A stretch of DNA of 49,167 nucleotides from assembly GCA_964013405.1 (NCBI GenBank), contig CAXGWI010000010.1, positions 1-49,167 of the forward strand. The letters run 5' to 3'. Below are positions 30,668 to 36,069 of this stretch, one piece after another. The position numbers were made by a program, and so were the translations under genes. The DNA is from an uncultured Myxococcales bacterium (GTDB lineage Bacteria > Myxococcota > UBA4151). The notes beneath the pieces are model-generated. The model did no database searches and was not told the origin of the DNA. It was given only the letters and a program-made list of their open reading frames with translations. Each line of letters opens with the position of its first letter. The stretch's first letter is position 1.

Positions 30668-31602
30668 GCCAGTCGCCTCTGCAGCGCCTCGATGTCCCGT
30701 GTGATTTGCGCTGTGAGGGCTGCAACGCTGGCAAACCGCCGCTCGTCTCTGAGGTGGAAGTGAAGGCTTAGATTCATGGTCTCGCCATAGAGATCGAGGG
30801 CTTCGGGAGCGCCGACGAGGTGGGCCTCAATGACCAGGCCTCCATCGTTAACAAAGGTTGGCTTTGTCCCCACATTTACCACCGCTGGAAGACGGAAAGA
30901 GGCTCCCGTTGCGAAGCCTCCGTACACACCGGGTTTTGGGCGTAACTTATCGGAGTGAATGTCTATATTGGCGGTCGGAAAACCAATCTGCCGACCCCGT
31001 TGGTCGCCAGGAACCACTCGACCTGAGAGCGGATAGCCATGACCCAAGAGGGCGATGGCCTTGTCGAAGGGGCCTTCCGCAATCAACCGGCGGATGCGAC
31101 TGGATGAAATCGCCTTATCACCGCTTTCAACCTTAGCGACCACATCGAGCACCGCTCCGTTTTCCTCAAGGATGGAACGGAGCAGTTCCGTATCGCCCCG
31201 ACGGTTCGTGCCGAAACGAAAATCTGCGCCCACGACGACGCCAGCCGCTTGGAGTTGTTCCACGAGCACCTCTGCAACGAAGGTCTCAGCCGGAAGCAGT
31301 GCAATGCCTTCGTCAAAGGGTAGAAAGAGGGGCTCTCCCACACCTGCGTCCATGAGTAAGCGGACCCGTTCGTCGGGTAAGGAGAGGAGCTCAAGAGTGC
31401 TTTCCGGGCGAAAGTAACGACTCGGCGGCGGCCAAAAACTTAAGGCGGTGAGGTTGGTGGCACCGACATCCTCGGCCAGCGCCAGTCCCCGTTGAACAAG
31501 TGCTTGGTGTCCTCGATGGACGCCGTCAAAGTTGCCGATGCAGATCACCCGCCGTCGCCGGACCAGTTCGGGGCCGACCCACCGCCCCGTGTTTTCTGTC
31601 AT
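30664..31602 (-). CDS. ribF: Bifunctional riboflavin kinase/FAD synthetase
   Basis: IGNFDGVHRGHQAL, VGADFRFG, ISSSRIR, GRQIGFPTAN, IEAHL and LRDERRF. Confidence 0.96.
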   Translation of the reverse strand: MTENTGRWVGPELVRRRRVICIGNFDGVHRGHQALVQRGLALAEDVGATNLTALSFWPPPSRYFRPESTLELLSLPDERVRLLMDAGVGEPLFLPFDEGIALLPAETFVAEVLVEQLQAAGVVVGADFRFGTNRRGDTELLRSILEENGAVLDVVAKVESGDKAISSSRIRRLIAEGPFDKAIALLGHGYPLSGRVVPGDQRGRQIGFPTANIDIHSDKLRPKPGVYGGFATGASFRLPAVVNVGTKPTFVNDGGLVIEAHLVGAPEALDLYGETMNLSLHFHLRDERRFASVAALTAQITRDIEALQRRLA

Positions 31603-32510
31603 GGTCCTGCGTCAAGGGGGGTCGGGTTCTCGCTCGGTGGTCCAAGGGGGCGGATCTCTTTGTCGACGCCGGGGTTGGGTTCGACTCGGGGTGCTGGCGG
31701 CGGCGGCGACCAGCGGGACCAGCAGCCCTCTTGTGCTTCGGTTCCCGGCTCGAGGACACAGACCCCATAGGCCTTTGGAAAGGTCTCGTTCAGCAGTTTG
31801 CCGTCCTTGCTGAAGATGGCGGCCACCGGACCCAGGCGCGTGATCGTCTCCTCTTGAGCTTTGCTCGCCGCGGCCGGCGGATCACTCTCTTCGTAGCGCA
31901 TCATCAGGTGGGCCCGAGCCCCCAAAGCGGGGTAACCATTGACCCTCAGCGCCCGGACAAGCCCCACGCCGCTGCGGACGAAATCGAGGGAGGAGAGGTA
32001 GACGAGATGGGCCCCTGAGCGATGTAGCTCGGTCAGATACTCGCTGCTGCCCGGTCGTTGTTCATCATCGGAGAGATAGGCATCCGAAAAGAGCCGTTCC
32101 TTGAGTCGGCGCTGAACGAGTTTGTGGAGCGGATCCTCCTCTTTGATGTCCAGATACTTAAGGAAAGCAGCGGGACTGCGTAGCTTGAGACCATGGTCCG
32201 AACTGCGCATCGCTTTCTCCATCAGCGGCTTGCGCTTTGCCTCGTACATAACCTCGGTGAAGATGCGTTGCAGGCGGGGAAGCCGGTCCATGAGGACCTG
32301 GTCGTCGAGGTGCACGATCACGACGCTATTCTCGACTTTTTTGATGCGCTCGAGGATCTGCTGCCTGGCTTTGTCTGGATCCCCGTTTAGGGCAGGCCAC
32401 GTGACCTCTTTGACCGGTGGAGGGGGTGCCTCAGAGGTTTTTTCTACTGGGGCTGATCCGCATTGGCAGCCGGATGCGAGGAAAACAAAAATGAAAAGTC
32501 GTCGTGTCAT
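31599..32510 (-). CDS. Lipoprotein with degenerate HAD-like fold
   Basis: Lipobox LASGC then QC. HAD-like scaffold VVIVHLDDQVLMDRLPR...RPG...L...GAHLVYLS with the catalytic positions altered. Pro-rich linkers. Confidence 0.6.
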   Translation of the reverse strand: MTRRLFIFVFLASGCQCGSAPVEKTSEAPPPPVKEVTWPALNGDPDKARQQILERIKKVENSVVIVHLDDQVLMDRLPRLQRIFTEVMYEAKRKPLMEKAMRSSDHGLKLRSPAAFLKYLDIKEEDPLHKLVQRRLKERLFSDAYLSDDEQRPGSSEYLTELHRSGAHLVYLSSLDFVRSGVGLVRALRVNGYPALGARAHLMMRYEESDPPAAASKAQEETITRLGPVAAIFSKDGKLLNETFPKAYGVCVLEPGTEAQEGCWSRWSPPPPAPRVEPNPGVDKEIRPLGPPSENPTPLDAGP

Positions 32511-32615
32511 TGATCATCCTATGCCTATCCGGGACCTATCTGCATTTAGCCCGACGATCCAGCGGTGCGGTCGGCGAAGAGAAAAAAGTGAGATGACGCA
32601 CTAAAGACTTCTCTC

Positions 32616-32797
32616 GCTGTGCCGTTGTCTGGGGTGCATCGAGAGCGACTCTGCCATGGGTTCCTCAGATGCGGTTCTGATGTTGGTCGCAAGCTCAACA
32701 TGGAGCCCGATGGTCAGGGGCAAACGATCGTCGGATTCCAACTCTACAGCAGCTTCGATCCGCTAAGACCGCCAATGTCGGCGGTCTTAGCTTTTTT
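32616..32797 (+). ncRNA. Candidate structured non-coding RNA (long rod with branched apex, ending in an intrinsic terminator)
   Basis: Hand-folded nested pairings span 32616-32750, with a GCAA tetraloop and G.U wobbles favouring the + strand. Ends in a terminator with no + strand gene upstream. Confidence 0.55.
32762..32797 (+). terminator. Rho-independent terminator
   Basis: Perfect 12-bp stem GCTAAGACCGCC / GGCGGTCTTAGC with a 6-nt loop, followed by TTTTTT on the + strand only. Confidence 0.8.
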
Positions 32798-33503
32798 CCT
32801 GGCTGCTGATGCGCACGAGGCGGGGGCGAAGCTCGGGGCCCGGCGCAAGGAAAAATAGGGCATCCATACCTGGATTGTCGGCCTGGAGCCGGGCCCGTTC
32901 TTGCTCAAGCTGAGCTTCAAACTCTTGGTAGCTACCCACCTCGGATTCCCGTCCTTGGCCCCGCAGGGCTTGGATGTACTCCAAATAGACCTCTCGATAG
33001 GTCTCGGTGGTTGCCGCTTCTTCGGGTACCTTGGGGAGCATGGTCAGACTGGGTTCCGGCGCAATTCGCGGGGCTATTGCCTCCGATCCATCTTGGTCCA
33101 TGCCAGGTTCTTCAATGAAGCTGCCTGCGAAATCTCGACTATCGTTATCGGGACGGTGGAGGATCACAGGGCCTAGATTTGCGTCGACAGAACGCTCTTC
33201 GAGGAGACGCATCACCGCGTCAACCTCCCGGGCCAGTTCTCTGTGTAGGCCGATGCCTTCGACCAACACAGATCGGGGCTCGCCGGAACGAGCGGCCTCG
33301 GCGACTTTCCTTCGGATCTCATCGAAGGGCTTGAGCAATGCGTCGACGACGAGGAACAGTACCGTGAGGGTGAGGGCCAAGACGACCAAGTCCACCAGCA
33401 TGAGGGATTCCTCGACGAGGATTTCAGAGATCTCCAGCCACCAGCGCAGCAAGAAACCTGGAACTAAAATCGCTGCGACCTTGAGTACGGCGACGGATCT
33501 CAC
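32787..33503 (-). CDS. Membrane protein (2 TM, HAMP-like) with MXAN_5187-like C-terminal domain
   Basis: GTG start in a GTGA overlap with the upstream stop, and two TMs. C-terminal YREVYLEYI..L...G......YQEFEAQL..ER..L resembles the MXAN_5187 C-terminal family from memory. Confidence 0.6.
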   Translation of the reverse strand: MRSVAVLKVAAILVPGFLLRWWLEISEILVEESLMLVDLVVLALTLTVLFLVVDALLKPFDEIRRKVAEAARSGEPRSVLVEGIGLHRELAREVDAVMRLLEERSVDANLGPVILHRPDNDSRDFAGSFIEEPGMDQDGSEAIAPRIAPEPSLTMLPKVPEEAATTETYREVYLEYIQALRGQGRESEVGSYQEFEAQLEQERARLQADNPGMDALFFLAPGPELRPRLVRISSQEKS

Positions 33504-33970
33504 GGCTTTTGAACCCCCGATCGGCCCTTCATTCCCGCGCGGCCGAGTGCTTGGATAACCTTTGATTCCGATTTTGAAGCCGCGAGAAAAGCCTTTTTGC
33601 AGTCGGTAAAGAGCCGCCGCCGCAGGCAAAGCTCGAGGGCCAAGGTCTGCTCCGTGGGGCTACCGGACTCGGCCAACTGACTCAGTTGCTGTTTGCTGAT
33701 ACCGGGTGCTTTTCGGGACAGAACTTGGCCAAAGTCTGGCGAGAACAGGATGGCAGCCACGACAAAACCCAGGCCTAAAAGTATCGCCGATCGACCGGTG
33801 GGGGCGTCTTCCCGTCGGGAACGGACAAGATGGTCGATGGCGAACAGGCCAAGGCCGATCAAGTAGACCGTTTGAGATAATAGAGCGCCGCCACCATCAG
33901 CCTGGCTCGTCAGCGCGGCCAGGGCCGCACCCACCAAAACACCGGCGACAAGATAACGAACCAGCTTCAT
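33500..33970 (-). CDS. Hypothetical membrane protein (3 TM)
   Basis: 156-aa ORF with three hydrophobic segments and a helical tail. Confidence 0.6.
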   Translation of the reverse strand: MKLVRYLVAGVLVGAALAALTSQADGGGALLSQTVYLIGLGLFAIDHLVRSRREDAPTGRSAILLGLGFVVAAILFSPDFGQVLSRKAPGISKQQLSQLAESGSPTEQTLALELCLRRRLFTDCKKAFLAASKSESKVIQALGRAGMKGRSGVQKP

Positions 33971-34012: not shown

Positions 34013-34519
34013 TCAACCGGACTCGATGCGCTTGAGGAGCGCCTGAAATCCGGGCTCATCTCGTTCGAACAAGAGGGCGCTACGAATCTCCGACTTTGCG
34101 GCGCGAAGATCGCCCTTCTCCAGCGCGGCCAGCGCGGCCTGGTAATGACGTTTTCCAGCCTCTGTTTTCCCCGGCTCCTCCGCCTTTTTACGGGCTAAGG
34201 AGCGACTGCGGACCTTGCCTGTATCCAGGCGGAGTTCGCCGCCTTCAAGCCCCTCTATGTACGCTGCCTTTGTGATGGGATTTCGAAGGGTAGAGTAAGC
34301 TTCTGTGATGCGGCGATAGATGGCGCTGACCGCTTGGTGTAATTCGGGGTCGTCCATGCCACCGAGCCGATCTGGGTGGTAGTGTTGGGCAAGGCGTCGG
34401 AAGCCGCCTCGAATCTCTGTCCCTGAAGCATCTTGCTTGAGGTTGAGGAGCTGAAAATAATTTAACTGGTCCAGCCGTTGCGCGACGCGAAGAACTGCGG
34501 TTCGCCAGTCCGCACTCAT
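34013..34519 (-). CDS. J-domain co-chaperone with C-terminal TPR-like helices
   Basis: NYFQLL, HYHPDR (HPD motif), [13 protein letters not shown], and a TPR-like tail. ATGA overlap with the Hsp70 gene. Confidence 0.9.
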
Positions 34520-36069
34520 CGGGCCGTACCAGGCAGTGAAGCGGAGGCTTCGGCCACAGACTGGTCATTCATCTTGACGCTGAGTCGGACGTTGGCTGAG
34601 GCCGCTCGCCCGGTTTGACAGTCGGTGGCGGTGACTCGGACCAAACCGTTTGGATCGATCTCGAAGGTCACGTCGATTTCGACTTGGCCGCGGGGGGCCA
34701 ATGTCAACGGACCAAAGGCAAACTCACCGAGCAGGGTATTGTCCGCCTGCAGATCCGATTCTCCCTGAAAGACGCGAATTGCGACGAACTCTTGGTGGTC
34801 TCGACTGGTGACGAAGGTCCGAGTTCTTTCCGTTGGGATGGGGGCATTCTTCTCGATGATGGCTTCGGTGAAGCGCTGGACTGTGCCCAGGCGGAGCGTC
34901 AGCGGTGTGACATCGAGAAGGATTTGTTGCGCTTGGCTCTGGTCATTCAGGCTCGCGCCGTAGATGGCCGCACCGACCGAGACGACGAGATCGGGATCGA
35001 TTCCAGTGTCAGGCTCTCGACGAAAGAAGCGACGAACCGCTTCCCGGACCGCTGGAACCCGTGTGGAGCCCCCAACCAGCACGACACCATCGATGAGGTG
35101 AGTGCCTGTCTTCGCTTCTTTCAGCACGCTGTCACAGATTTCGATGCTTCTTTGAATCAGTGGCTCGATCAACTGATCGAAACGATTTCTCGTCAGGCCA
35201 TAGACCATGGGAATTCCGGCGACGACCTCGAGATCAATCTCCACCGTATCGTGCTCGCTAAGTTCTCGCTTACTTGTTTCTGCCAGGTCCCAGAGGACCG
35301 CCCGGGCGGCCGGATCCTGACGAGGGTCCCGGCCGGTTTTGTTGAGGATCTTCTCGGCCAGGTCATCGACGATCACACCATCCATATCGTCACCCCCGAG
35401 ATACGTGTCGCCACCGGTTGCGAGGACTTCGAGGACGCCCGCGCCCATCTCGAGGACTGAGAGGTCGAAAGTACCACCGCCAAAGTCGTAAACAGCCACA
35501 CGCTTTGCCTCTTGGTCTCCGTACCCATAGGCCAGGGCGGCGGCTGTTGGCTCGTTGAGGATACGTAATGGTTCCAGGCCAGCGATCATGGCCGCATTAC
35601 GAGTCGCCTCTCTTTGGTTGTCGTTGAAGTAAGCGGGGACGGTGATCACCGCTTTCGTTACGCTTGTCGTGCCCAGATAACTGGCCGCCGAATGGGCCAA
35701 TTCCCTCAGGATCATCGCGGCGATTTCCTCAAGCCGATATGCCCGTTGGTCAATTTGTACACGGACGTCACCGTGGGCACCGGAGAGAATATTGAAGGAC
35801 ATTTCTTCCTGGGCCTTTTGGACCTCAGCGCTCGAACTGGTCCGGCCCACGAGTCTCTTGCTTGAGCGGACCGTTCGTTCCGGTCGCTGGCCAATACCTG
35901 CCCGGGCCGGGTTGCCGACGAGCACGCTGCCGTTGGGAAGAAAGGCAACACAACTGGCGGTGGTGAGTTCCCCGTCTTGATTGGCGATCACCGTTGGGCG
36001 GTTGGCTTCAACAACGGAGACCACCGAGTTCGATGTTCCCAAATCAATTCCAAGCACCGGCGGTGACAT
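34516..36069 (-). CDS. Hsp70 family protein (DnaK paralog lacking the C-terminal lid)
   Basis: [58 protein letters not shown] and LLDVTPL. Ends at 517 aa. Confidence 0.95.

Follow-up and report, generated by a model that had tools for sequence, protein, structure and literature searches.

The largest intergenic gap of the window, by which we mean the whole stretch of 49,167 nt analyzed here from an uncultured Myxococcales bacterium, appears to hold a stand-alone plus-strand non-coding RNA gene of a family absent from Rfam, a view supported by comparison of homologous loci. We put at roughly two in three the probability that its product is a ~164-nt trans-acting RNA, likely transcribed by FliA after hook completion, that clamps the leader of a flagellin-flaG mRNA at two sites and blocks ribosome loading. 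This reading is built on a promoter-like motif, a terminator, conservation, complementarity to the leader, and the rank of that complementarity, all of which can be read from the sequence itself (coordinates in Table 1).

Table 1. Features of the small-RNA locus and its neighbors (window coordinates unless a locus is named)
Feature	Position	Strand	Remarks
303-aa gene, no Pfam family	31599..32510	-	Heads run with ribF and aroE; constant neighbor of the RNA
Predicted -35 box, sigma-28 (FliA)-type (CTAAA)	32601..32605	+	CTA[AC]A in 8/8 homologous loci
18-codon antisense ORF	32601..32657	-	Opened by complement of seed A; 10/18 residues identical in same-genus homolog
Predicted -10 box, core CGWTGT	32621..32628	+	17 nt after -35 box; core and spacing kept in 8/8 loci
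Predicted small RNA, 164 nt	32634..32797	+	Start inferred at 32634-32636, where conservation begins
5' hairpin P1	32635..32673	+	Loop (32652-32657) complementary to AUG-GCA
Seed A, 15-nt perfect complement	32652..32666	+	Covers -9..+6 of flagellin G000:C116:7377-8201 (-), from Shine-Dalgarno through spacer and start codon to second codon
Seed B, open linker and base of P2	32673..32690	+	Pairs with -85..-69 of that leader (17 pairs, one bulge)
Long hairpin P2, G-rich apical loop	32685..32760	+	Fold from predicted start
Possible third contact (tentative)	32714..32723	+	10 pairs with leader -105..-96
Intrinsic terminator, 12 pairs and T6 (hairpin 32762-32791)	32762..32797	+	Overlaps the 280-aa gene (minus strand) at its stop codon
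280-aa gene, no Pfam family	32787..33629	-	Convergent with the RNA
Lipoprotein-like gene (second genus), no Pfam family	L012:2429-3010	-	Also L011, L013, L040, L042, L045, L047

The RNA gene, its homologs and its fold

The gap (32511-32786, 276 nt) lies, as the original prediction had it, between two genes on the minus strand. It had also been called the only large gap of the window; by crude gene calls it is the largest, and there are further gaps of 262, 236, and 197 nt. The 12-bp hairpin with T6 said to be oriented for a plus-strand transcript is present. The 303-aa neighbor, described before as HAD-like, receives no family from Pfam; it is 69% identical to its homolog in a Myxococcales MAG. 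A distant paralog of this neighbor (26-30% identity) is found in four family genomes (L014, L015, L016, L017). No tRNA or tmRNA was detected by a scan of the window, which also carries, at 34013-36069 on the minus strand, a second DnaJ-domain/Hsp70 pair (168 aa and 517 aa), shorter than canonical DnaK. Contigs of RNA run X1 include a 163-nt piece in the gene neighboring the RNA and none over the RNA; this gap in the contigs carries no weight.

When 61 genomes were searched at the DNA level with the locus from the genome of this window (G000), a strong match was obtained in a genome of the same genus (G001) and a weak syntenic one in G002, a member of a second genus together with G003 and G004. 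Tracing the 303-aa neighbor led to the element in G001, G002, G003, and G004. A pattern scan of metagenomes gave 14 matches, five of them homologs by synteny and nine set aside as chance. A covariance model built from seven homologous sequences finds, by construction, a single copy in each of five of the six genomes from one flagellated family (completeness of G005, 59%); against 145 other genomes of the phylum it returned a lone 22-bit, 46-nt match in G007, likely due to chance. The sample amounts to about six distinct species, and the relatives are not independent.

The homologs are 149-164 nt long, and a plus-oriented hairpin with a T run stands at the 3' end of all seven that were folded. 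In the second genus, a lipoprotein-like gene sits between the RNA and the 303-aa gene, and the place of the 280-aa gene is taken by an NtrC-like gene (recognized by eye); plus polarity and the terminator are still kept. Because polarity and terminator persist though the downstream neighbor differs between genera, the element is best regarded as a stand-alone plus-strand gene. No Rfam model matched at its gathering score in the window, the check proposed with the original prediction; at E<=10, two chance-level eukaryotic matches only were seen over the gap, and ten loci including the flagellin leaders gave three chance-level matches only. The absence of an Rfam match, the conserved plus polarity, and the dedicated terminator support the earlier suggestion of an unannotated plus-strand non-coding RNA, possibly of a new family.

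From its predicted start, the RNA folds into a 5' hairpin (P1), an open linker, a long hairpin (P2), and the terminator. This layout is the minimum free energy fold in six of seven homologs; in the G001-like sequence the 5' part folds differently, yet all 14 P1 pairs are possible. The outer six pairs of P1 are kept in 5/5 genomes, with changes to G-U only. In P2 of the second genus, both sides have changed at 4 of 19 counted pairs, all from one divergent sequence. In the five sequences from the second genus, pairing holds in 95% of cells and 6/40 pairs have changed on both sides (one pair being scored as unpaired in this count), which is above 500 shuffles and all slid controls; as the changes come mostly from one divergent genome, this support is modest.

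The 135 nt before the terminator had been drawn by hand as one nested rod. The segments exist, but they do not make up the favored fold. Within 32610-32800, pair probabilities are 0.026 for GCTGT/ACAGC, <=0.006 for GTTG/CAAC, 0.002 for TCTGG/TCGGA, <=0.003 for ATCG/CGAT, and ~0.18 for the inner CTCTG helix, and in the same order 0/5, 1/4, 4/5, 3/4, and 5/5 pairs are kept in G001. The GGGTTCC/GGAGCCC helix keeps 4/7 pairs there, in a comparison that leaves out the rod helix CCAT/ATGG. The alternative fold retains 14/14, 10/11, 12/15, and 12/12 pairs in the same genome. With a start at 32634-32636, the stretch 32616-32633, which contains the outer helices of the rod, would lie in the promoter and would not be transcribed.

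The folding z-score, suggested earlier as a check, is -4.15 on the plus strand (32610-32800) against -2.64 on the minus strand; most of the plus-strand value comes from the terminator. Without the terminator the values are -1.19 (32616-32761) and -0.92 (32634-32761), and across seven homologs the body scores -0.4 to -1.3. A weak body score is expected for an RNA that keeps its seeds open. Body folding no better than that of shuffles would equally suit a locus from which no RNA is made, that is, a promoter or operator remnant next to the terminator of another transcript, with a flagellin match due to chance. We consider this very unlikely, since the promoter motif, the fold layout, and the plus terminator are kept across two genera with different neighbors, and since it does not account for the rank of the target among 2802 leaders (see below).

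An ORF of 36 codons (32656-32766) had been offered as an alternative or additional reading. The ORF exists, but this reading is not supported: its middle is frame-shifted in the same-genus homolog and its start codon is missing in the second genus. The locus could in principle encode a short mRNA for this peptide, as the same ATG in the same-genus homolog opens a 31-codon ORF whose frame is restored by compensating shifts, or else, CsrA being present, an RNA that titrates CsrA. CsrA sponges of the CsrB/RsmY type carry many GGA motifs in hairpin loops, in contrast to just two GGA triplets in the 164 nt of this RNA. Together with the frame-shifted peptide and the absent ATG, this makes either version highly improbable.

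The original prediction had also likened the element to 6S RNA, from its ~180-nt, rod-like appearance. At the locus there is no match to the 6S model (RF00013, gathering score 46.4 bits) even at E<=10, and the conserved rod of paired 5' and 3' ends around a central bubble was not found, the outer helices having P<=0.03 with 0/5 and 1/4 pairs kept in G001. The sole match to the model in the genome lies on another contig (G000:C83:10846-10961, plus strand) and scores 18.5 bits, below the Rfam cut-off; the model is thus weak in this bacterial family. Candidates at the equivalent position occur in four of five relatives, which with G000 makes five of six family genomes, all below the cut-off (divergent loci L001:1470-1650, L018, L019, L020, L021). 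All five are located 3' of a zapA-like gene (by eye, no Pfam match) and 5' of ygfA (5-formyltetrahydrofolate cyclo-ligase) and rny. According to the accessible text of PMC7641849, ssrS likewise follows zapA and precedes ygfA. Our RNA gene is positioned elsewhere, and in 5/6 family genomes the zapA/ygfA site is filled by the other locus.

A divergent second 6S RNA, or another decoy of RNA polymerase, would be compatible with the size of 32616-32797 and with the pairings drawn by hand in one sequence. It is at odds with the lack of a match at E<=10, with rod helix probabilities of 0.002-0.18 and helices that are not kept, and with the separate, sub-cut-off candidate between the zapA-like gene and ygfA-rny; we regard it as largely refuted and extremely improbable. 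The likeness to 6S RNA is one of rough size only: this RNA matches no covariance model, forms no closed rod, and occupies another gene neighborhood. The Pxr sRNA model (RF01812) had no match at E<=10 in G000.

The promoter and its flagellar setting

In 8/8 homologous loci, the two promoter boxes keep a fixed spacing while the spacer sequence varies. The arrangement CTA[AC]A-17 nt-CGWTGT resembles the sigma-28 consensus. A motif drawn from the RNA loci has 21 matches in G000, eight of them intergenic, with the RNA locus and two flagellin genes among these. Two of the three distinct matches within 377 kb of G003 precede flgM and a flagellin, and a slightly relaxed motif stands before flgM in five of six family genomes and, with one mismatch, in the sixth, G000. 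FliA scored over the curated cut-off in 5/5 genomes searched, FlgM is encoded in 6/6 family genomes, and eight matches to flagellin-domain genes were found in G000. For comparison, the sigma-28 motif of Bdellovibrio is given as TTAAG-N16-CCGATA in the accessible part of PMC3627812. The single hit of a sigma-70 scan (9/12, 32463-32492) falls within the 303-aa gene and is no better than shuffles; an earlier sigma-28 pattern with fixed spacing had given three matches versus 0-3 in shuffles. Taken at the level of motifs, the RNA is likely transcribed by FliA (sigma-28), with a predicted start near 32634 (32634-32636). Neither this promoter nor the complementarity to a flagellin described below was part of the original prediction.

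The lineage carries further flagellar loci of note. At G000:C15:7765 (+), an unusually long flagellin-domain gene (732-aa open frame) has a sigma-28-type motif ~107 nt upstream of the domain match. A flagellar cluster with flgM, csrA, a fliW-like gene (by eye), and several flagellins is found at G000:C7 940-8000 (region of L036 and L092) and G003:C76 75700-86000. A CsrA-FliW-flagellin circuit is probably present in this lineage, which is filed near the myxobacteria.

Pairing with the flagellin-flaG leader

The predicted target is a flagellin-flaG mRNA with a 199-nt leader and a sigma-70-type promoter (TTGACT, 17 nt, CACACT) conserved in 5/5 aligned leaders. A single mismatch-free contig of run X1 begins at the predicted sigma-70 start, takes in both flagellin and flaG, and ends at a terminator (C116:8400-6848); it comes from one study and shows cover rather than a mapped start or level. 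The leader (G000:C116:8201-8400, i.e., L027:1920-2119 on the minus strand; also L032, L033, L034, L057) is a conserved structured RNA with no Rfam match. It has a closing helix with matching changes (by eye), an internal AGGAGG, itself conserved but not accompanied by a conserved start codon, and, 5' of the ribosome site, a hairpin with an AAGGA loop of the CsrA-site type. GGA motifs occur in it at eight places, including the hairpin loop between the two sites described next. CsrA was found in 6/6 family genomes, and Hfq and ProQ each in 0/6.

Two stretches of the RNA are complementary to this leader. The 15-mer of seed A has two occurrences in the genome, the RNA locus and the target flagellin, and its match is the longest among 2973 gene starts; one other 15-nt genome match exists, to a different part of the RNA. 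The same 15 pairs can form in G001, where a contig end cuts the leader before the seed B site. For seed B, TTCTGATG is invariant in 7/7 aligned sequences. With the RNA split in four equal parts, the leader ranks 1/2913 for RNA nt 33-64, the part with seed B, and 4/2913 for the sum. Seeds A and B have co-linear sites, separated by 60 nt that fold into two hairpins; the AAGGA loop belongs to one of these. After opening of both RNAs, the net energies of the two sites are -12.5 and -14.7 kcal/mol.

A third contact, noticed by eye together with an apparent compensatory change, is tentative: alone it is worth -4.4 kcal/mol, compared with -35.8 kcal/mol for seeds A and B alone, it adds no binding energy, and its pairing in the second genus is not above background.

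Whole-molecule co-folding of the RNA with the leader gave -34.5 kcal/mol, and none of 2801 other gene starts came as low (best -25.5, mean ~-9.5, SD 3.6 kcal/mol). This ranking concerns a target that was first spotted by eye, with the leader length set from that target and the gene starts taken from a crude caller. RNAs with shuffled bodies (n = 315) reached on the same leader a mean of -7.5 and a best of -19.7, and the RNA combined with four other flagellin starts -7.6 to -11.0. The 5' ends of two sigma-28-type flagellin mRNAs did not pair with the target leader (-5.2 and -5.7). When accessibility was ignored and hybridization energy alone was used, the leader ranked 139-224 of 77,253 genome tiles in an approximate nearest-neighbor energy scan, and 35/2913 for seed A at gene starts. 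By co-folding, then, the RNA is predicted to pair with the flagellin leader far better than with the other gene starts tested.

In the second genus, seed A is an 8-9-nt anti-Shine-Dalgarno sequence, which is also antisense to the start of the overlapping lipoprotein gene. A two-site layout is common to the co-folds of G002, G003, and G004, with the linker 5' of the AAGGA hairpin and the anti-Shine-Dalgarno on the ribosome site. For the G003 RNA, the orthologous flagellin leader ranks 1/147 windows (-16.6, against a mean of -7.2, SD 2.7); the background is a non-random 377-kb sample, and served as a proxy for G002 and G004, whose leaders are beaten by 3/145 and 1/145 windows, respectively. Taken singly, the second-genus modules pair no better than background, and whole-molecule co-folding alone singles out the leader. 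When RNAs and leaders were exchanged, the G000 leader scored -37.4 with the G000 RNA, -37.0 with the G001 RNA, and -11 to -13 with second-genus RNAs. Second-genus leaders scored -8 to -20 with RNAs from within the genus and -6 to -12 with the G000 RNA. The modeled pairing is genus-matched.

The ribosome site, start codon, and first codons of the lipoprotein-like gene are antisense to the RNA and its promoter. The RNA might be mainly a cis-antisense regulator, of the lipoprotein gene in the second genus or of the 18-codon ORF and the downstream ribF-aroE run in this one, with the flagellin match secondary. Overlap with the lipoprotein Shine-Dalgarno and start is complete in G002, G003, G004, and L042, a minus-strand Shine-Dalgarno and ATG exist in both genomes of this genus, and the RNA is always beside the 303-aa gene. 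Nevertheless we find this unlikely. A tblastn search at E<=1 finds no match to the lipoprotein in G000, where the RNA is kept nonetheless; the 18-codon peptide is 10/18 identical and its frame differs from that of the lipoprotein gene; and seed B, the most conserved part, lies outside the overlap. A cis role would also leave the rank of a distant flagellin leader, 1/2802, unexplained. The 18-codon ORF is probably a by-product; the complement of the -35 box provides its stop codon.

The pairing could also be real and serve another logic, with the abundant leader acting as a sponge for the RNA, with binding that remodels the leader and so relieves CsrA repression, or with another flagellin as the main target. 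In favor of such readings, the flagellin-flaG contig is the deepest run X1 piece examined, the leader has its eight GGA places, one in the hairpin loop between the sites, and CsrA occurs in 6/6 genomes. In 4/4 second-genus genomes, moreover, seed B fits about equally well a site that is conserved ahead of a second flagellin, at a distance of 213-218 nt. The ~450 nt before this MAIVV-type flagellin (L028, L029, L030, L057) hold conserved hairpins, AAGGA loops, and an island complementary to seed B in all four. In the three genomes tested, however, its upstream region co-folds more weakly than the orthologous leader (-11.4, -9.9, and -14.7 vs -13.2, -16.5, and -18.5). In this genus, seed A spans Shine-Dalgarno and AUG with 15 pairs, and sRNA pairing over both should itself block initiation. 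We judge such alternatives to have a small chance of being right, and repression of the flagellin-flaG mRNA is the reading followed below.

Proposed mechanism and relation to known flagellar RNAs

The locus is a real, family-restricted candidate small-RNA gene with a specific predicted target. From this we infer the start site, transcription and its dependence on FliA, pairing in the cell, repression, and purpose, in the following scheme. Export of FlgM frees FliA, as flagellar logic has it, and the RNA and the sigma-28-type flagellins would then be transcribed together. The 5' hairpin of the RNA would open on the Shine-Dalgarno and start codon of the flagellin-flaG mRNA, blocking initiation, and the seed B linker would anchor the RNA 70-85 nt upstream of the start, with the AAGGA-loop hairpin looped out between the sites. 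Duplexes of this length would form with no need for Hfq or ProQ. The sign of regulation is taken to be repression because of the site covered, and the target is assigned to an earlier flagellin class from its sigma-70-type promoter motif; the purpose is likely a hand-over from the early flagellin to the sigma-28-driven ones.

A further-reaching version, to which we give rather less than even odds, is a chaperone-free switch in which the RNA, made by FliA, holds the CsrA-site hairpin clamped at both flanks. The resulting multi-way junction would silence the housekeeping-promoter flagellin-flaG mRNA as the late flagellins start, and RNA and leader would be co-evolving between genera.

Control of a flagellin leader by a sigma-28 sRNA is of a known kind, and the RNA family is new to Rfam. 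In the accessible portions of PMC4626219 and PMC11187230, Campylobacter jejuni CJnc170/FlmR and CJnc10 (CjNC4, CjNC1) are stand-alone, sigma-28-dependent RNAs with their own terminators. They are predicted to base-pair with the ribosome sites of flagellar genes of earlier classes, the minor flagellin flaB among them, act independently of Hfq in reporters, and shorten flagella when overexpressed (PMC4626219, PMC11187230). At the motif level, our RNA shares the sigma-28-type promoter, the stand-alone gene, and the terminator, and in silico it is also complementary to the ribosome site of a flagellar mRNA of an earlier class, the class being assigned from the promoter of that mRNA. As far as the descriptions available go, the Campylobacter RNAs are 44-47 nt long and have one seed and many sigma-54 targets, whereas ours has 164 nt, two long co-linear seeds, and one clear sigma-70-type target with a 199-nt structured leader.

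Vibrio cholerae FlaX pairs at three sites on the flaB leader, according to the available text of PMC11879080. [quoted passage not shown] Our RNA resembles it in having several sites in one flagellin 5' UTR, ribosome site included (two supported in silico, the third tentative), and differs in being a separate gene far from flagellins, with a FliA-type motif, in genomes where ProQ was found in 0/6, and in acting, as predicted, in the opposite direction of the hierarchy. It thus works, by this prediction, like CJnc170/FlmR and FlaX, yet by size or origin is a member of neither.

UhpU, MotR, FliX, and FlgO, small RNAs of E. coli, are likewise under sigma-28 control; as described in the accessible part of PMC10578931, they are UTR-derived, three pair inside the fliC coding sequence and alter flagellin levels, and Hfq is involved. 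In contrast, our RNA is stand-alone and pairs, as predicted, with a leader and start codon in genomes where Hfq was found in 0/6. Bdellovibrio bacteriovorus, of a predatory relative lineage, has the small RNAs APsRNA3, 6, and 7 with a FliA motif (PMC3627812, in part); by description they share this motif with our RNA, and that portion of the report assigns them no targets. No such RNA is described in Myxococcota in the literature searched, which lay mostly outside subscription journals.

The finding gives an uncultured marine lineage a candidate regulatory RNA for which promoter class, target, and the exact base pairs can all be named. If the multi-way-junction switch is correct, it would tie the FlgM-FliA and CsrA-FliW checkpoints to one mRNA in a flagellated Myxococcota lineage. 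If the RNA acts as proposed, sigma-28 RNAs that repress an earlier flagellin would have arisen again, independently of Campylobacter FlmR, in a design that is multi-site like that of Vibrio FlaX, runs in the reverse direction, and uses no known chaperone. It would then support RNA-RNA pairing as a recurring means of ordering multiple flagellins.
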